Virus record (IMG/VR): IMGVR_UViG_3300031228_000023
Span: 1-32,182 of that record
Length of the DNA stretch: 32,182 bases
From: a virus
Taxonomy: Duplodnaviria > Caudoviricetes
Direction: 5' to 3' (one strand)
This document shows positions 3,903 to 30,601 of this stretch, in pieces. A model generated the notes under the pieces. It did no database searches and was not told the origin of the DNA. It saw only the letters and a list, made by a program, of their open reading frames with translations. Each line of letters starts with the position of its first letter. Within the stretch, counting starts at the first letter, position 1. The position numbers and the translations under genes are program-made.

Positions 3903-5033
3903 ATGTCCCGCGTCCCTCCGTCCTGGCCCACCGGCCGACCCGGCCCTTGCCGTATAGCGATCGTTGGCGAAGCCCCGGGCCAGGATGAGGTTTGGGCGGG
4001 CGCGCCCTTCGTCGGTATGTCCGGCCAGGAGCTGACCTCCCAACTCGCCCAGGCCGGCATCGACCGCTCCGAGTGTCTGCTGACGAACGTCCTGTCCGTC
4101 CGCCCCGCCGACAACAACCTCGCCTCGCTCTGCGTCCGCAAGGAGGACCTCCCCAGTGACTACCCCATTCATATTGGTCCTATGGTTACTCACGGCGGGA
4201 ACTTCTACCTACGGCCTGATCTGCTGGCTGAAGGTGCTAGGCTACGCGAGGAGCTTGCCGCAGCCCAACCAAACGTGGTTATCGCTCTTGGCGCTACTGC
4301 TTGCTGGGCTCTGCTTGGCGACACTGGCATCGGCAACCTGCGGGGCGTGGTCCATCGTTCTGTCACAAGCGTACCCTACAAGGTAGTCCCCACCTGGCAC
4401 CCGGCCGCGATCCTCCGCACCTGGCAGTGGCGGCCCATAGCCATCGCCGACCTGGCCAAAGCCAAGCGAGAGTCGGCCTACCCGGAGTTCCGCTATGACA
4501 ACTTCGAACTCTGGCTGGAGCCCGAGCTTCCCGACCTCCACGAATTTGAGAGGCTCCATATACCCCCGGGTTCTGTCGTGGCACCTGACGTCGAGACAGC
4601 CAATGGCGAGATTACCTGTATCGGCTTTGGTGTCGGCGAAACTGCCCGCCGAGGTTTGGTCATTCCTTTTAGGACGGACCCTGTCACCGTGGGAAAAGGC
4701 GATAGTCGACGTACTCTCTACACTGGCAACTACTGGCCGTCCTTCGCCCACGAACGCGCCGCTTGGCTCTGGGTCAAGCGCATCCTCGAAGACCGGAAGG
4801 ACCTTCAGTTAGTCTGGCAGAACGGATTGTATGATATCCAGTACCTAATCAAGCATGGCATCTTCGCAACCAATTCGACCCACGACTGTATGTTGATGCA
4901 CCACTCAATGTACCCGGAGATGGACAAGAGCCTCGGCTTCCTGGGCTCGATCTACCTCAACACCCAGAGCTGGAAACAGTTCGGCGGCAAGCGGGGCCAG
5001 AAGTTCGCCGACGACTTGAAGAAGGACGCCTAG
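3903..5033 (+). CDS. UDG-like domain fused to the N-terminal part of a DnaQ-like 3'-5' exonuclease (first subunit of a split PolA)
   Basis: Family-4-like UDG motifs IAIVGEAPG, LTNV, VIALGATA and PTWHPAAILR. Then ExoI (APDVET), ExoII (QNGLYDIQYL) and HDCMLMHH...SLGFLGSIY. No ExoIII before the stop. Confidence 0.85.
   Translation: MSRVPPSWPTGRPGPCRIAIVGEAPGQDEVWAGAPFVGMSGQELTSQLAQAGIDRSECLLTNVLSVRPADNNLASLCVRKEDLPSDYPIHIGPMVTHGGNFYLRPDLLAEGARLREELAAAQPNVVIALGATACWALLGDTGIGNLRGVVHRSVTSVPYKVVPTWHPAAILRTWQWRPIAIADLAKAKRESAYPEFRYDNFELWLEPELPDLHEFERLHIPPGSVVAPDVETANGEITCIGFGVGETARRGLVIPFRTDPVTVGKGDSRRTLYTGNYWPSFAHERAAWLWVKRILEDRKDLQLVWQNGLYDIQYLIKHGIFATNSTHDCMLMHHSMYPEMDKSLGFLGSIYLNTQSWKQFGGKRGQKFADDLKKDA
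4156..4386 (+). CDS. Candidate overprinted (+1 frame) 76-aa membrane protein inside the UDG-like gene
   Basis: AGGAGG (4141-4146) lies 9 nt before GTG 4156. Two hydrophobic stretches. ORF limits coincide with a T-ending codon patch of the host gene. Confidence 0.55.
   Translation: MTTPFILVLWLLTAGTSTYGLICWLKVLGYARSLPQPNQTWLSLLALLLAGLCLATLASATCGAWSIVLSQAYPTR
4495..4812 (+). CDS. Candidate overprinted (+1 frame) 105-aa protein inside the exonuclease part
   Basis: GGAG 7 nt before ATG 4495. The stop is formed by the rare host codon TTA. Host codons are T/A-ending-rich within the ORF. Confidence 0.4.
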   Translation: MTTSNSGWSPSFPTSTNLRGSIYPRVLSWHLTSRQPMARLPVSALVSAKLPAEVWSFLLGRTLSPWEKAIVDVLSTLATTGRPSPTNAPLGSGSSASSKTGRTFS

Positions 5034-5036
5034 CCC

Positions 5037-5246
5037 ATGACCGCCACCGACCGCACCAAGCCCGCCTGGGAACCCATCAGCCAAGCCCGGATGATCGCCG
5101 ATAACATCCACAAGGACCTCGCGGACGCTGACCGGGCGACCGAACCTTGGGCTCGTCTCCACCATGTCGAGGTCGCCCAGGATCGCATCAACGGATTGAA
5201 GGCTCGCCTTGACACAGCGGCGAAGGAACTCGGAGCCCGCCAATGA
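5037..5246 (+). CDS. Small hypothetical helical protein
   Basis: AAGGA upstream. 69 aa. ATGA overlap with the RNase H gene. Confidence 0.65.
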   Translation: MTATDRTKPAWEPISQARMIADNIHKDLADADRATEPWARLHHVEVAQDRINGLKARLDTAAKELGARQ

Positions 5247-5764
5247 GCGTAGCCAACATCATCTGTGACGCATCGGTCCTCCAGCCCGGCCGCGAAGCCT
5301 GGGGTTGGGCCTGTGCCATCATCACCGACCGAACCCGTCACTACACCTCCGGGCAGGGACGGGTCCCCGTCGCCTCCTCCAACGACGCCGAGTTCTTCGC
5401 CATCACCAACAGCCTTGACTTCGCCTTCCGCCGCGGCATGATCGCTCCCAACGAAGTCGTCCTGATCCAATCCGACAGCCTCCATGCCGCCGGTGTCTTC
5501 AACTATCACTTCCGTTCGCGCCACTATCGAGGCGCCCCGGTAGGTCGGACCTGCCCGACCGTTAGCCCGGCCCAAGCCCAAGCCATCGTCCACCTGACCG
5601 GCCTCCTGTCTCGCCACCCCTACCGTTCCATCTATGTCCGCCACGTCAAAGCCCACCTCGCCTTCGCCAACCGCGCCGCCCGGAACCACGTCCACGAACG
5701 GGTGGACGAGCTGGCCGGCATCGCCGCCCGCAAGGCCTATGGAGCCCTCGCCCATGTCCGCTAA
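5243..5764 (+). CDS. rnhA: Ribonuclease HI-like protein
   Basis: Catalytic D-E-D-D pattern: IICDAS, SNDAEFFAI, IQSDSL, HVKAH...HERVDELA. Confidence 0.85.
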   Translation: MSVANIICDASVLQPGREAWGWACAIITDRTRHYTSGQGRVPVASSNDAEFFAITNSLDFAFRRGMIAPNEVVLIQSDSLHAAGVFNYHFRSRHYRGAPVGRTCPTVSPAQAQAIVHLTGLLSRHPYRSIYVRHVKAHLAFANRAARNHVHERVDELAGIAARKAYGALAHVR

Positions 5765-6086: not shown

Positions 6087-7805
6087 ATGGCCCGCATCCT
6101 CCATACCGCGAACCTCGACTCGTCCAGCCCACTCCTAGCCGACCCTAACACCCGACTTTGGATATACAACGGCTACGACGTGTGCGGCACCCGAGCCATC
6201 TTCGACGCCCTCCTGCCCGAGGTCGCCCGCGCCTCCACCTCCTACAACTTCGTCCGTGCCATGCAAGGTCCGGCCCTGGACATGATGCTTCGCGGCATTT
6301 GGGTCAACCCTCTCCAACGCAGCCGAGAGCGGGCGAGGCTCAACGCCGCCAGGGACCGCTGCCAAGCCCTGCTGGACGAACTGGCCCACGCGGTGTGGGG
6401 CCGAGGGTTGAATGCCAACTCCAGCAAGCAACTCCTAGCCTTCTTCTACATCGCGCTCGGAGCCCCGGTCCAGTACGCCCTCCGCAAGACCCCCGAGGGC
6501 AAGAAGAAAACCCCCTCGTGCGACCACAAAGCCCTAGAGAAGCTTGCTCAGTGGAAGAACAAGGGTCCCGCCATCAGCCCATGGGATCGCCATGTCACCT
6601 CCGTCCACCTCGCCAAACCCTTCGTCACCCTCATCACGAACATCCGCGAATACACCAAGAAACTCGGGGTGGTTAACAGTGGTATTTCAGCTGACGGACG
6701 GCTCCGTTGTAGCTATAACGTCGTCGGCACGGTTACGGGGCGATGGTCATCGAGTAGCAATGTATGGGGGTCCGGCACTAACCTCCAGAACATTACAGAG
6801 TCTATGCGACGCATGGCCTGCGCAGATGCTGGCTATAAGCTGGGGACACCCGACCTTGAGCAAGCGGAGTCCCGTTTGGTTGCGGGACTTACTTGGCTTG
6901 CCACAGGCGATGATACCTATTGGCGAGCTTGTGAGTCCGGTGACCTACATACAATCGTTTGTACCATGGCGTACCCGGAACATTTTGAGGAAGTGGGGGG
7001 TTGGGATCATAGCCTCGGTGCTTTCGTCGGAGACCTAGCCGCTTGCCGGGTCATCGCCGACCGTAAGTTCTACCGCCACCTGTCCATGCGGGACCTCGCG
7101 AAGCGGATTGGGCATGGGTCCAACTACTACGGCCCGCCCCTCGGCATCGCCGGAATGATCGGCATCGAGGTTGCCGTCGTGGAAGAGTTCCAGCGCCGGT
7201 ACTTCCGCGCCTTCCCGGCTATCCGCCAGTGGCACGCCGCCACCATCCGCCAACTCCAAACCACCTCCTGCCTGATCACCCCCTTGGGCCGCATCCGGTT
7301 CTTCTTCAAGCGCACCTCCGAAGACACCGTCCAGCGCGAAGCCATCGCCCACGTCCCCCAATCCACCATCGGGGAACTCCTGAACTGTATGCTCTACCGG
7401 GTGTGGGACTACGGGATGAAAGGCGGAAAGGTCGCCCACCGCCCCTGGACCGCCGCCTGCCAACTCCTCCTCCAGAACCACGACTCCATCCTATTCCAAT
7501 ACCCCGAGGCTCTCGAAGACACGGTACTCGCCAAGGTCCGCGAGCTGATGACCATGACCCTCCCGCTGACCCGTGTCGACCCCGACACCGGCCTCAGCGA
7601 AACCCGACACCTCGCCCTTCCCCTGGAGTTCAAGACCGGGTGGAATTGGGCCAAACAAGACAAGCGTAAGGACTTCTTCGATGACGGAAACCCCGACGGC
7701 CTCCGTGACTACGCCGGACCCGGAAGCGACGCCCGACGTCGATGCGACCCCGCTCGGCCCGACCCCACCCATTACCTCGGACTGCCCTCCGGGTTCGGGA
7801 AGTGA
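6087..7805 (+). CDS. polA: Family A DNA polymerase (polymerase domain preceded by the ExoIII helix)
   Basis: YNGYD (ExoIII), NANSSKQL, GTVTGRWSS, NLQNI, motif A DLEQAESR, motif B RDLAKRIGHGSNYYG, TPLGRIR, PQSTIG, motif C LLQNHDS. Confidence 0.95.
   Translation: MARILHTANLDSSSPLLADPNTRLWIYNGYDVCGTRAIFDALLPEVARASTSYNFVRAMQGPALDMMLRGIWVNPLQRSRERARLNAARDRCQALLDELAHAVWGRGLNANSSKQLLAFFYIALGAPVQYALRKTPEGKKKTPSCDHKALEKLAQWKNKGPAISPWDRHVTSVHLAKPFVTLITNIREYTKKLGVVNSGISADGRLRCSYNVVGTVTGRWSSSSNVWGSGTNLQNITESMRRMACADAGYKLGTPDLEQAESRLVAGLTWLATGDDTYWRACESGDLHTIVCTMAYPEHFEEVGGWDHSLGAFVGDLAACRVIADRKFYRHLSMRDLAKRIGHGSNYYGPPLGIAGMIGIEVAVVEEFQRRYFRAFPAIRQWHAATIRQLQTTSCLITPLGRIRFFFKRTSEDTVQREAIAHVPQSTIGELLNCMLYRVWDYGMKGGKVAHRPWTAACQLLLQNHDSILFQYPEALEDTVLAKVRELMTMTLPLTRVDPDTGLSETRHLALPLEFKTGWNWAKQDKRKDFFDDGNPDGLRDYAGPGSDARRRCDPARPDPTHYLGLPSGFGK
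6679..7038 (+). CDS. Candidate overprinted (+1 frame) ~119-aa protein inside polA
   Basis: The +1 frame is open from 6544 to 7038. GTG 6679 follows GGGGTGG; ATG 6592 is an alternative start. The T-ending codon patch ends at the TAG formed by the rare host codon CTA. Confidence 0.45.
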   Translation: MVFQLTDGSVVAITSSARLRGDGHRVAMYGGPALTSRTLQSLCDAWPAQMLAISWGHPTLSKRSPVWLRDLLGLPQAMIPIGELVSPVTYIQSFVPWRTRNILRKWGVGIIASVLSSET

Positions 7806-9164: not shown

Positions 9165-9515
9165 CTACTCCCGCCACGGAGTAAGCTGTTGCCAGAAGGT
9201 GCGGGGCGCGAGGGCCTTGGCGACCTCCGCCTCCCGCGCGTTACACTTCTCCACGATGGAGATGGTGTCCCGGGTCCGTCCGTTGGCTAGGTCCAACTGG
9301 CCCGTCTGTCGAATACCAAACTCCTGCCAGTCGACCCTCGGACCCTCCGGGTCAGGCATGGGCGCGCTAGGGACGCCCGCCCTCCACGCCTCGGGAACGT
9401 TCTCGGCGCAGTTGAACGCAGCGAGGGTCGTCCTTGGCGCTGTCGTACATGCACATGCGAGCAACAGCAAGAGCGCCGCGCTGCTCATCCTCAATGTCGT
9501 GTAGGTCTTTGACAT
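9165..9515 (-). CDS. o-spanin (Rz1-like outer-membrane lipoprotein)
   Basis: MSKTYTTLRMSSAALLLLLACAC is a lipoprotein signal with a lipobox Cys. Pro-rich mature part. Starts inside the i-spanin gene in the +1 frame. Confidence 0.8.
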   Translation of the reverse strand: MSKTYTTLRMSSAALLLLLACACTTAPRTTLAAFNCAENVPEAWRAGVPSAPMPDPEGPRVDWQEFGIRQTGQLDLANGRTRDTISIVEKCNAREAEVAKALAPRTFWQQLTPWRE

Positions 9516-9753
9516 CTGCGTCCACCTTCTTTCGTGTATCCAGCCCGTCCTGGGCGTTGCCGATGATAACCCCCGCCGCATCCTCGGCCGCAGCGGCTTG
9601 GCCCTTAGCTTCCTCCGCCTCCACCGAGGCGCGCCTCGCCCGTTCCTCCGCCTGGCCCGGCCGTATCACCACGAACCACACGGCGAACGCGAACAGGGCC
9701 ACAAGCAGCCCCGCCACGATCGCCCTGAACATCAGCTCCTGCGTCCACTTCAT
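9367..9753 (-). CDS. i-spanin (Rz-like inner-membrane protein)
   Basis: N-terminal TM (AIVAGLLVALFAFAVWFVVI), Ala/Glu-rich coiled coil, C-terminal Cys residues. ATGA-coupled to the endolysin. Confidence 0.8.
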   Translation of the reverse strand: MKWTQELMFRAIVAGLLVALFAFAVWFVVIRPGQAEERARRASVEAEEAKGQAAAAEDAAGVIIGNAQDGLDTRKKVDADVKDLHDIEDEQRGALAVARMCMYDSAKDDPRCVQLRRERSRGVEGGRP

Positions 9754-10490
9754 TTGTAGTCTCCTTCAATCAGGCCTTGCTGGAACACCGCCGCATACCC
9801 GGCGATCAGCGCATCCTTGTCCGTGCCGTTGACGATGCGTCGGGCGTCCTTGAACTGTTCGAAGGACCCAAGCCGGGTAGGGAGGAATTTCCCCAACCCA
9901 ACCCCGGTGAATATCCCATCGCGCATCCCGGCCACCATAATGTCGGCGCTGATCACCGGGTCCAGGGCGAGGTCATAGTCGGCCAGGAGGCGGCCCCCGA
10001 GCCCCAGCGCCGCATCCATCTTCTCGTAGTTACTGGCCCAGGTGAGCTGCACGTCTCCCCGCCCGTAAGGCACCTGATCCCCGTGCCTGCCCGGAACCCC
10101 GTACTTCTTCCCCCTTCCCTTACCGTATTCTCGGATGGGGGACATAGTACCCGCCGTCTCATGGTAGGAAGTGGCAAGACAATACGCGGCCCAAGATATC
10201 GGGAACCTCGCCTTTCCACAAGCGTTGATGATCCGGTTACACCCGTCCACCTCCGCCTGGGTTAGGGTCGGCCCCAGAGGCGGCTTGGCCTTGACGTAGT
10301 CAAAGAACTTCGCCGGGAGGCGGAGGCTTGTCGCCGGGGCTGAGACCGGCGTGGGTGGGGTCGGCACCGTCGGCGGGTCCGGTTGCACCGGGTTGGTCGC
10401 CATCAACACCTGCGCCGAAGTAAGGCGTTCTTGCGCTTCTCCCAGCAACCGGATAAGCTCTTGCGTCTTCTGCTCGTTCGTCAGTGCCAT
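9750..10490 (-). CDS. Endolysin, glycoside hydrolase family 19-like
   Basis: AYCLATSYHET, PIREYG, YGRGDVQLTWASNY, ARRIVNGTD. N-terminal helix plus Pro-rich linker. GGAG RBS. Confidence 0.85.
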   Translation of the reverse strand: MALTNEQKTQELIRLLGEAQERLTSAQVLMATNPVQPDPPTVPTPPTPVSAPATSLRLPAKFFDYVKAKPPLGPTLTQAEVDGCNRIINACGKARFPISWAAYCLATSYHETAGTMSPIREYGKGRGKKYGVPGRHGDQVPYGRGDVQLTWASNYEKMDAALGLGGRLLADYDLALDPVISADIMVAGMRDGIFTGVGLGKFLPTRLGSFEQFKDARRIVNGTDKDALIAGYAAVFQQGLIEGDYK

Positions 10491-10785
10491 CAGTCCGCTC
10501 CATTGTCGTCGTCGTTGTCGTGGTCAAGGGCGCGGATTGTGCCTCCGCCAACGTGTTGATAGTCCGGTTCTTCTGGGCCGCCTCGGCATTGTCCCCGAAG
10601 TAATACCCGTAGGCATCACTGAGCCGGGTCAGCAGCGCACCTACGATCAGTAGGAACGCGTCCATCATAGGTTCCGGCACGACCGCCCGGAAGAAGAGGA
10701 TTGCCCCGATGATCAGGAGGATCGTCGCGACCATGGCCAAGGCGAGGAGCGCCTTAACCCATTCATTGCTTATGCCCAAATGCAT
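10300..10785 (-). CDS. Putative holin (two TM segments, long polar tail)
   Basis: AGGAG 8 nt before ATG 10785. TM segments ALLALAMVATILLIIGAILFF and AFLLIVGALL, then YYFG. Directly upstream of the endolysin. Confidence 0.7.
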   Translation of the reverse strand: MHLGISNEWVKALLALAMVATILLIIGAILFFRAVVPEPMMDAFLLIVGALLTRLSDAYGYYFGDNAEAAQKNRTINTLAEAQSAPLTTTTTTTMERTDGTDERAEDARAYPVAGRSARTPYFGAGVDGDQPGATGPADGADPTHAGLSPGDKPPPPGEVL

Positions 10786-28164: not shown

Positions 28165-30249
28165 TCAAAATCCTTGTGGCGGGAGGGGAGGCAACGCGCC
28201 GCCAGGCGGACCTGAGGGACCTGCCCCGGCGACTTGGGGGATTTCGCTAAGCGGGACGAGGTTCCCGGCCTGGGCCTGTTGGGCGATACCCTCGGCCGGC
28301 GCTAGCTTGAACTGGTCGATGTTCTGGGCTCCGCCGAGTTGGGCCATGAATCGGAAGATCGCCTGGGCATCGTAGGTCTGCTGCATCTGGCCAGAGGGGT
28401 CCTGAACCACCATCCCCCAGATTTCGCGCCACACGTCGAGCTGGGCGACCCGGTCGAGCGGAAGGGTCCCGTCGTGGATGGGGAAATAGTAGTCCCCCTC
28501 GATACCCTCGGGGGTGATGATGACGGAGTCCATGGTGCCGTTCGCGCCGAGCACTCGGGCTTCGAACTCGCCGGTCATGAACTGTTGGTAGTTCGACGCC
28601 CACTGTGCCGCGCCCCGACTCAGCCCCATGGAAGAGTAGAGCATGGCCCGGGAGGCCAGTCGGGACCCACCCGCCTCGAAGCTGGTGCGGACCTCGGTGG
28701 CGGTTTTCCGGCCCCCGGAGTCTTGGATACCTCGCATGTTGTCGGACGCGCCCGTTAGGTCGTTGCCCATCCGCTGCATGAGTTGGTAGTCGGCCAGATG
28801 GCTCCGGGTAATGTCGGACACCGCTTGCTGCTGGATGGCCGCCCGAGCGTCAGCCGGAGCCCACGGGGTGGACTTCAGGCGGATCAGACCCCCTGGCAGC
28901 GGATCGAGGAAGTCGTCCATCTCGACACGGTTGGGGTCCACCACGAAGATGTTGTTGAGGGACGCCCGAACGTTGTACATGTGGGAGTTGATCAGCCAGG
29001 ACATGGTGTCTTGGGTCGAGGCCAGGAGGTCGACGGTCGAGAGTTGGCCGAAGCTGTGGCCGAAGGCATTCGGCTCCGTCACGGAGATCGGGTGTTCGCC
29101 GTGATTGAGGTTGACGGGTTCGGCCTGGACGATCTGGGATTGGTTGAGGATGGTGAACAGCCACTTCTCGGGCCGCTTGGACGGGGACAATCCCAACTCC
29201 GCCGGGATGATTTCGACCGTCCCTTGGTCGACCTGGATATTCGGGGCCGCCGTAGAGGAGCCTTGGGTGCCCCCGGAGGTCAGAGGCTCGCCCAATGCAC
29301 GGAGGCCGGCGATGGAGTCACCGCCAGCACCTGAGTGGCCTCCCAGCCACGAGGGGCCGGAACCTGCCTTGACCGCGTCGACCCATTGAAGGAGACCGTC
29401 CGCCTGCGCGCGGAGGAGCATGTGGCGACCTTGGAAGTCCCGCCAGAAGACGAACTCGCCCTTCTCGGCGACCTCCACCATCGGGACCCTCGGGTCGGGG
29501 AAGAACATAAAGGGCGAGATGATGGAGACGGCGTTCCCTTCGAAGCACACGGCGCGTTGCTGGGACCGCACGGGCGGCGCATTCATCCCGGAGTACGCCA
29601 TGATTTGGGCGAGCTGGGGGGACGCCGGCCGGGTGACGGTCTTGGTGCGCTCGACGCGGGACCACATATTCCGCTGAACAGCGATCCCGTAGGCCTCACC
29701 GTTGGCGAAGTAGTTGTACAGGTGGTACACGTAACGCTGATAGTCCGCGTTGTACTGGAGGAGGGTCTCCATATTCTTGGCGCGCTTGACCTGCTCGCCA
29801 CGGTACGCGCCGACTTGGAAGATGGGCTTGCGTCCTCCGAACGTATGGAGGAGATAGGTGATGATCGTCTGCATGGTGGCCCAAGCATAGGGGACCACCA
29901 CCTCGTCGGGAGCCTTGACCTTCCCCGAATGCTGCATCTCCTTGAGGATCGCCTCGTACTTGGGGAGGGTCACGTAAGCTTGGAGCCGCATCTCGTTCGC
30001 CCGGAACCGGGGGTACATCGGCGCCATTTTGTCCTCAGACCACCGGAGCCGCTTGAGGAGGTAGTCGAGAACGAAGGCGTGCTGGGGGGACTGCGGGCGA
30101 AGGAAGTCGATCGGACGGGTAGCGCCACCGGCCCTGGCGGGCGGAGCGAACTTATACGGGCTCCACTGATCGAGCCCTAGACGCTCGCCACGGGGGAGGC
30201 TGTGGGGGGCCGGATCACCGACCATCGACGGTAGCGCGGTATCAGCCAT
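28165..30249 (-). CDS. Portal protein
   Basis: 694 aa downstream of terminase. SPFMFFPDP, GEHPISV, DLTGASDNMRG...KTATEV and a Q/P-rich tail resemble P22/SU10-type portals. Confidence 0.85.
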   Translation of the reverse strand: MADTALPSMVGDPAPHSLPRGERLGLDQWSPYKFAPPARAGGATRPIDFLRPQSPQHAFVLDYLLKRLRWSEDKMAPMYPRFRANEMRLQAYVTLPKYEAILKEMQHSGKVKAPDEVVVPYAWATMQTIITYLLHTFGGRKPIFQVGAYRGEQVKRAKNMETLLQYNADYQRYVYHLYNYFANGEAYGIAVQRNMWSRVERTKTVTRPASPQLAQIMAYSGMNAPPVRSQQRAVCFEGNAVSIISPFMFFPDPRVPMVEVAEKGEFVFWRDFQGRHMLLRAQADGLLQWVDAVKAGSGPSWLGGHSGAGGDSIAGLRALGEPLTSGGTQGSSTAAPNIQVDQGTVEIIPAELGLSPSKRPEKWLFTILNQSQIVQAEPVNLNHGEHPISVTEPNAFGHSFGQLSTVDLLASTQDTMSWLINSHMYNVRASLNNIFVVDPNRVEMDDFLDPLPGGLIRLKSTPWAPADARAAIQQQAVSDITRSHLADYQLMQRMGNDLTGASDNMRGIQDSGGRKTATEVRTSFEAGGSRLASRAMLYSSMGLSRGAAQWASNYQQFMTGEFEARVLGANGTMDSVIITPEGIEGDYYFPIHDGTLPLDRVAQLDVWREIWGMVVQDPSGQMQQTYDAQAIFRFMAQLGGAQNIDQFKLAPAEGIAQQAQAGNLVPLSEIPQVAGAGPSGPPGGALPPLPPQGF

Positions 30250-30601
30250 TGGAGGGGTCCGGGGTTTGGGGAAGGGAGTCGAGGATGAAGACGGGAGCTA
30301 CGACGGGCGGCGGAGGTACGGGTATGTCGTTGTCGCGGAGGATGCGGGCGAGGCTTTCGTTGTACTGTTGGAGGCCCCGGACCTTTACCTCCATTTGCTG
30401 GAGGCGCTCCTCGTTACGGGCGAGGATTTCGTCCTGGCGGTCGATGTGGAGCTTCATGGAGGCGTTGAGCTGGCCCTGAAGCTGGGCCTGGACCGACCCT
30501 CGACCGCCGAAGAAAGAGATGAGGCCGATCATCACGGAGGAGACGACCCCTAGGATGCCGGCCACGATGGTTTGGTTCAGCTCCGTGGCCATCTCGCTCA
30601 T
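30242..30601 (-). CDS. Single-TM coiled-coil protein
   Basis: ATGA coupling with the terminase stop. TM segment TIVAGILGVVSSVMIGLISFFG, then a coiled coil and Pro-rich end. Confidence 0.7.
   Translation of the reverse strand: MSEMATELNQTIVAGILGVVSSVMIGLISFFGGRGSVQAQLQGQLNASMKLHIDRQDEILARNEERLQQMEVKVRGLQQYNESLARILRDNDIPVPPPPVVAPVFILDSLPQTPDPSNG

Follow-up and report, generated by a model that had tools for sequence, protein, structure and literature searches.

A putative overprinted membrane-protein gene within the split UDG-polymerase gene of a Kuura-like podophage

Genomic setting of the locus

The gene at 3903..5033 (+), referred to here as the host gene, raises the question of whether a phage polymerase gene also encodes, in its +1 frame, a small inner-membrane protein (ORF-A), as an earlier note on this DNA had claimed, and if so, what such a protein would do. 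The window, i.e., the whole stretch of 32,182 nucleotides that was analyzed, is a virus record of 71% completeness with an SU10-type capsid and portal, and the phage is a dsDNA podophage of ∼45 kb with a genomic GC content of 63%. It is a Kuura-like podophage, with Caulobacter phage Kuura as its nearest cultured relative and a shared gene order. Kuura itself is described as a podophage that forms turbid plaques and encodes a putative repressor (PMC9959647); statements on this and the other papers cited here refer to excerpts of those papers.

The host gene product (376 aa) comprises a family-4 UDG-like domain and a 3'-5' exonuclease, i.e., the N-terminal half of a split family A DNA polymerase, and is 61% identical to Kuura_029, within which the Kuura record annotates no gene. 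The UDG-like domain that had been recognized around the locus was confirmed by Pfam (UDG, E=2.6e-20) and by matches to family-4 UDGs in PDB; PHROG 17 was also matched, and residues 73-112 form an insertion without counterpart in the solved family-4 UDG structures. The polymerase half (PolA; 6087..7805, +; Pfam DNA_pol_A) lies further downstream, and an RNase H-like gene (5243-5764, +) sits between both halves, where other small genes are found in Kuura.

Translation signals and codon bias of ORF-A

All the signals described in the earlier note were present. The Shine-Dalgarno (SD) sequence AGGAGG (4141..4146, +), followed by a C-rich spacer of 9 nt and a GTG at 4156, resembles the AAGGA leaders of the phage's own genes, and the frame that it precedes (ORF-A; 4156..4386, +), overprinted on the host gene in +1, runs for 76 aa to a TAG at 4384-4386. 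By itself, AGGAGG is weak evidence because the window contains 46 copies, 23 of them with a start triplet 4-13 nt downstream, and because the conserved K-E-D codons of the host gene generate this hexamer. The copy at 4141-4146 is predicted to be partly paired, not significantly so (z 0.07).

All 26 host codons ahead of the ORF-A start end in C or G, 26 of the 78 under ORF-A end in T (a previous hand count had given about 26 of 77) and nine in A, and C/G-ending usage resumes after the TAG, where the first 16 host codons all end in C or G. The 26 T-ending codons compare with 10.7 expected from genome codon usage (z=5.2), a count reached by none of 1,000 synonymous shuffles, and an equally hydrophobic ORF in the +1 or +2 frame arose in 0 of 1,000 shuffles under genome usage and in 3 of 1,000 under the gene's own usage. 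Moreover, ORF-A holds the sole +1 segment with a Kyte-Doolittle (KD) value of ≥2 among 29 window genes (10,132 codons; heuristic gene calls), and no such segment was found in the 36 genes of Kuura, likewise called heuristically. Scanning of the patch for a promoter, a terminator, or an Rfam element returned none. None of the differences listed for Logan contig variants falls in ORF-A, these variants being sparse and shallow and of little use for judging constraint. Two other candidates were set aside: an antisense ORF (4242-4751), which is probably a codon-antiparallel frame of the kind commonly open in GC-rich genes, and a T-modified genome as the cause of the T patch, for which the excerpt available (PMC13697223) concerns SP15-like enzymes and which would leave the choice among codon classes unexplained.

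Since any run of T at third codon positions (T3) turns the +1 frame hydrophobic, as in the phiX174 D/E overlap (Pavesi 2021, PMC8227390), host codons were split by class. Among host xCN codons, in which a terminal C creates Pro in +1, T is the last base in 12 of 19 across the whole of ORF-A and in 2 of 51 elsewhere; among xGN codons, in which a terminal C creates Ala, the figures are 4 of 16 and 4 of 32 (interaction of codon class and location, p=0.014). An o-spanin-like overlap in the same genome, serving as an internal positive control, splits likewise (T-ending in 4/7 xCN and 2/15 xGN codons). The interaction was also detected in ten T3-high relatives (p=0.011), a family-level result that is only modest because 26 T3-low controls gave p=0.045 as well. 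The preference for T is seen largely at codons in which C would put Pro in the +1 frame, and the codon bias of ORF-A exceeds chance and is specific to the +1 amino acid, with a weaker control at the family level.

Predicted structure and topology of the product

The two hydrophobic segments noticed earlier in the ORF-A product were recovered as 19-residue KD maxima of 1.76 (residues 5-23; predicted TM1, 4168..4224, +) and 2.26 (residues 42-60; predicted TM2, 4279..4335, +), the latter remaining hydrophobic to about residue 69. TM1 lies over the host insertion unmatched in family-4 UDG structures, and TM2 lies over host VIALGATACWALL and is the helix common to relatives. Hydropathy and an AF2 model, a helical hairpin of modest confidence (pLDDT 68-72, pTM 0.37), point to two TMs, with TM1 marginal. 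K26, R32, and R76 are the only charged residues, and by the positive-inside rule the loop is predicted to be cytoplasmic, with both termini outside and TM2 running from inside to outside, the direction also predicted for the single TM of most relatives. Searches with the product found no homologue in phages, the protein database, Pfam, or PHROGs and no fold match in BFVD or PDB, and the best Atlas score (0.89) is a lead only and not a homologue.

Conservation in Kuura and its clade

At close range, DNA-level comparison was confined to Kuura. No close DNA relative emerged when viral sequences were scanned with the host protein and with a pair of motif patterns, nor from a metagenome scan, in which the one true match among seven loci was the window's own contig; neither of two matches in a genome scan was a relative, and a plasmid scan was blank. 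Kuura retains AAGGAGG and GTG at the equivalent site (P=0.012 by shuffle) and shows a T3 excess over the equivalent host codons (z=3.1). Its +1 frame, which stays open for about 183 codons (P=0.085 for an open run this long), lacks hydrophobicity (KD 0.07). The conservation proposed earlier as a check was found in part, the SD and GTG being kept and the TAG and the hydrophobicity not. A conserved product is argued against chiefly by the non-hydrophobic frame of Kuura, which fits either decay or divergence.

In a protein alignment of the best 27 of 120 listed matches to the host gene, 23 rows form a clade with the window and Kuura (SH-aLRT 93 in a quick tree) and four fall outside. At the start position, all 23 clade proteins carry [SRNHDG][DG], a dipeptide permitting ATG or GTG in +1, which is absent from all four outside rows (0/4), and the six different host residues found there are all start compatible. 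Two of the 118 columns in which at least five residue types occur are confined to S/R/N/H/D/G, and the start column is the only one in which the next residue is G-initial too. At the protein level, this pattern shows compatibility with a +1 start, not the codons themselves. A first-position substitution test, also based on proteins, had no power, the clade giving no signal and TM-negative controls giving one.

Recurrence of a +1 transmembrane segment in distant relatives

Of 503 relatives, 80 were retained; once the window and three phage records had been added, the set contained 66 distinct genes, which fell into 45 clusters at 70% identity. One truncated gene was excluded, so that 65 genes were analyzed. 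An excess of T3 runs through the family from host codon 111 to 150 (z 2.7-5.6 for each ten codons), and 22 of the 65 genes have a +1 segment over VIALGATACWALL that resembles a TM and contains no stop. Counted by cluster representative, this segment occurs at one common host helix in 8 of 45 (window included), compared with 0.31 expected, and 37 are without it. Hydrophobic +1 segments occur three to nine times per genome in six relatives, the relatives being near 50% GC, and hence it is the recurrence at one site, not the hydrophobicity, that carries the argument. With core codons fixed, an in-frame start is present in all eight TM-positive clusters (4.5 expected) and a start with an SD in seven of them (1.3 expected, P about 1e-5), the null being lenient because TM-negative clusters also show an excess (11/37 versus 5.6 expected, P=0.007).

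Host-synonymous differences in five disjoint carrier pairs were fewer in the TM core than outside it (37/154 versus 408/1098, P=0.001), one pair (L023/L030, 15/33) being without this drop, and no drop was seen in the tail region of the carrier pairs (57/150) or in three TM-negative pairs (43/81 in the core versus 269/576 outside). This reduced divergence rests on distant carrier pairs, the window itself having no close DNA pair. Within the largest cluster, the putative start is a GTG in some members and an ATG one codon downstream in others, and two members of that cluster, L040 and L015, have neither the start nor the T3 bias. The carriers are scattered over the tree (8 changes, at least 6 of them forced by well-supported branches), a pattern that would fit gain or loss alike, and the two cannot be separated. 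The origin may lie in the host VIALGATACWALL helix, which would accept T at nearly every third position, so that a TM frame could be gained or lost without a change in the polymerase.

Most relatives' predicted products have a single N-terminal TM, a basic N-terminus, and a variable tail; the version in the window gains TM1 through a start about 30 codons earlier, inside the host insertion. ORF-A is probably a real gene. Several sequence tests support the proposed overprinted membrane-protein gene, of which only the second helix (TM2) recurs across the family.

Other T-rich patches in the window and in relatives

A second candidate +1 frame, ORF-B (4495..4812, +; 105 aa, or 69 aa from the ATG at 4603), lies over the exonuclease domain of the host gene, where T-ending codons rise at about host codons 225-285 (z=4.0, frame open), and has no TM (KD19 1.23). 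A z of ≥3 with an open frame at this site was found in 5 of the 45 representatives, and four of the five are ORF-A carriers (P about 0.002, from a table one row short). Counterparts occur in L060 (3162-3410), L081 (3150-3443), and L009 (3096-3296) and in the exonuclease region of L117 and L118; L060 and its near-twin have zero differences over about 80 codons of ORF-B and differ in the flanks.

T3 enrichment in the window peaks in PolA (z=5.9, above the 5.2 of ORF-A), where a +1 frame is open under the patch (ORF-C, a candidate; 6544..7038, +), with no clear SD or TM and no equivalent in Kuura. In PolA of three ORF-A-negative relatives (L050, L061, and L063), a +1 frame ends in a TM segment, and the L050 genome has two such segments. 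In the L013 cluster, the PolA +1 frame is open for about 213 codons to a common stop in all ten long-enough members, the ORF-A-negative L015 included. Late-gene T3 patches at about 23606, 24940, and 27575 (−; z 4.1-5.1) cover no convincing +1 ORF and are possibly imported or low-complexity segments. Third positions are A/T rich over codons 100-250 of the polymerase gene in L003 (Microcystis phage Mel-JY34), with a long open +1 frame that is not hydrophobic.

Possible function of ORF-A and alternative explanations

Our main reading, to which we assign a probability of roughly 0.4, is that ORF-A is a real overprinted gene for a two-helix inner-membrane protein that would be expressed with the replication genes and act in superinfection exclusion, one of several roles suggested earlier. 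Translation would start at AGGAGG-GTG on the replication-operon mRNA, the product would insert so that the K26/R32 loop faces inward and the two ends lie outside, and it would block DNA entry by a later-arriving podophage in the manner of T4 Imm. Counted in favor of exclusion were the location of ORF-A within the replication operon and the presence of a distinct cassette for late lysis. Superinfection exclusion would be the role best suited to an early inner-membrane protein that is small and turns over quickly; the protein would be Imm-like in its working and not homologous to Imm, with which ORF-A shares no Pfam, PHROG, or fold match. If the gene is real, exclusion is our best guess at its function, at a little under even odds.

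The lysis cassette comprises a two-TM holin candidate (10300..10785, −; 30% over 88 aa to Kuura_022) directly upstream of a GH19-like endolysin (9750..10490, −; PHROG 181, E=1.1e-19, with Pfam GH19 below the cutoff), an i-spanin-like gene with an N-terminal TM and coil (9367..9753, −), and an o-spanin-like lipobox ORF that overlaps the latter in +1 (9165..9515, −). The holin candidate matched no holin family, and the holin and spanin labels, given from architecture and position, are those of candidates. Endolysin matches were obtained in 2 of 19 virus records searched, the lysis cassettes of these two not being resolved. A second holin-like candidate (30242-30601, −; 119 aa, a single TM at the N-terminus plus a coiled coil) follows the large terminase.

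A role of ORF-A as the main holin is unlikely because the phage has this late cassette. It is also unlikely that ORF-A, as a real gene, tunes lysis timing as an antiholin or co-holin made ahead of the late holin: two TMs in 76 aa match the size of class II holins (PMC9636201) and the two-TM holin candidate could be its partner, yet ORF-A lies 5 kb from the cassette on the opposite strand, has neither a dual start nor a charged C-terminal tail, and is predicted to be N-out/C-out, whereas class II holins are described as N-in/C-in (PMC9636201).

We regard it as quite unlikely that the helix of a real ORF-A product inhibits a host membrane protein, such as a cell-wall enzyme, a protease, or a membrane-bound defence, in the manner of phiX174 E and the leviviral Sgls. 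Such a target is favored by the shared architecture and origin, an SD and a TM having arisen in +1 within polymerase genes at numerous positions (PMC7693330, PMC8227390), and by the family versions, mostly one N-terminal TM with a variable tail and scattered on the tree; nevertheless, the phage already has an endolysin cassette, inhibition of the wall early in infection would lower the burst, and no known protein in the databases searched is similar to the ORF-A product.

Absence of translation is improbable. Under this explanation, the T3 patch would act at the nucleotide level (codon pausing, an RNA or DNA element, or an imported segment), with the SD and GTG as by-products of the host K-E-D and S-D codons, and it draws on the frequency of AGGAGG in the window, on the hydrophobicity that any T3 run confers on +1 (PMC8227390), on the non-hydrophobic frame of Kuura and the further T3 patches in the window, and on the low synonymous divergence, which a nucleotide element would also explain. 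Against it stand the choice of T mainly where C would give Pro, the coincidence of the patch edges with the start and stop of ORF-A, the start compatibility maintained through six different host residues, and the lack of any promoter, terminator, or Rfam match at the patch. Tethering of phage replication to the membrane, for which phi29 p16.7 is the model, is very improbable even with ORF-B as a possible soluble partner, since ORF-A has no soluble domain and ORF-B is absent from the largest TM-positive cluster, despite the position of ORF-A inside a polymerase gene and its presence in four of the five clusters having ORF-B (P about 0.002).

Comparison with known systems

Gene E of phiX174, nested in gene D, resembles ORF-A in that T-ending host codons supply the second positions of a Leu-rich TM (Pavesi 2021, PMC8227390). 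In contrast, phiX174 is T3 rich genome-wide, whereas T3 richness in the window phage is local, within a genome of 63% GC, and E is a lysis gene and has no sequence match to ORF-A. Genes of the Sgl and phiX174 E type are the sole lysis genes of endolysin-free genomes, and the window phage has an endolysin. The leviviral sgl genes within rep are likewise small ORFs with an SD and a TM in the +1 frame of a polymerase gene, and they arise repeatedly at many sites within rep (Chamakura 2020, PMC7693330); these phages have ssRNA genomes under strong size limits and their lytic activity has been shown, while ORF-A belongs to a ∼45-kb dsDNA podophage, in which its role is putative.

T4 Imm (9.3 kDa) is an early inner-membrane protein with a periplasmic N-terminus (bioRxiv 10.64898/2026.03.06.709160), to which the ORF-A product, small and predicted to be early, located in the inner membrane, and periplasmic at its N-terminus, is similar; unlike ORF-A, Imm is encoded by a stand-alone gene, has four helices, and targets a myovirus tape measure protein (same source). 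Class II holins and antiholins such as S21 share with ORF-A the two TMs and a similar length and differ from it in the opposite predicted topology, the dual start, and the location in a lysis cassette (PMC9636201). The type of the host gene itself, a family-4 UDG fused to the exonuclease with exonuclease and polymerase split, matches the UDG-fused and split family A polymerases of Czernecki 2023 (PMC10201439), in which the exo/pol split concerns T7-like enzymes and the account, in the excerpt available, deals with enzymes rather than internal overlaps.

Overprinted TM genes are thus already known from phiX174 and leviviruses, and the instance in UDG-PolA genes is unreported in the literature searched, in which no overlapping gene in such genes was described (supplements lay outside the search, and Table S1 of Kuura may bear on lysis genes). 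Standard gene callers drop nested genes, and if ORF-A is real, hidden early membrane proteins sit inside the polymerase of a widespread phage family. Carriers and noncarrier sisters, such as L040 and L015 within a carrier cluster, provide natural material for comparing lineages before and after a gene arises de novo, and Kuura is cultured and retains the start site, so translation is directly testable there. A broader and rather speculative proposal is that split UDG-PolA genes act as a breeding ground for newly arising membrane effectors. A +1 TM gene would have emerged over one host helix repeatedly and in different lineages, in many cases accompanied by another hidden gene over the exonuclease domain, and the two would form an unannotated module for exclusion or counter-defence. 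If true, this module would have been missed by every annotation pipeline, and the process would be the dsDNA counterpart of the repeated birth of sgl genes in RNA phages.
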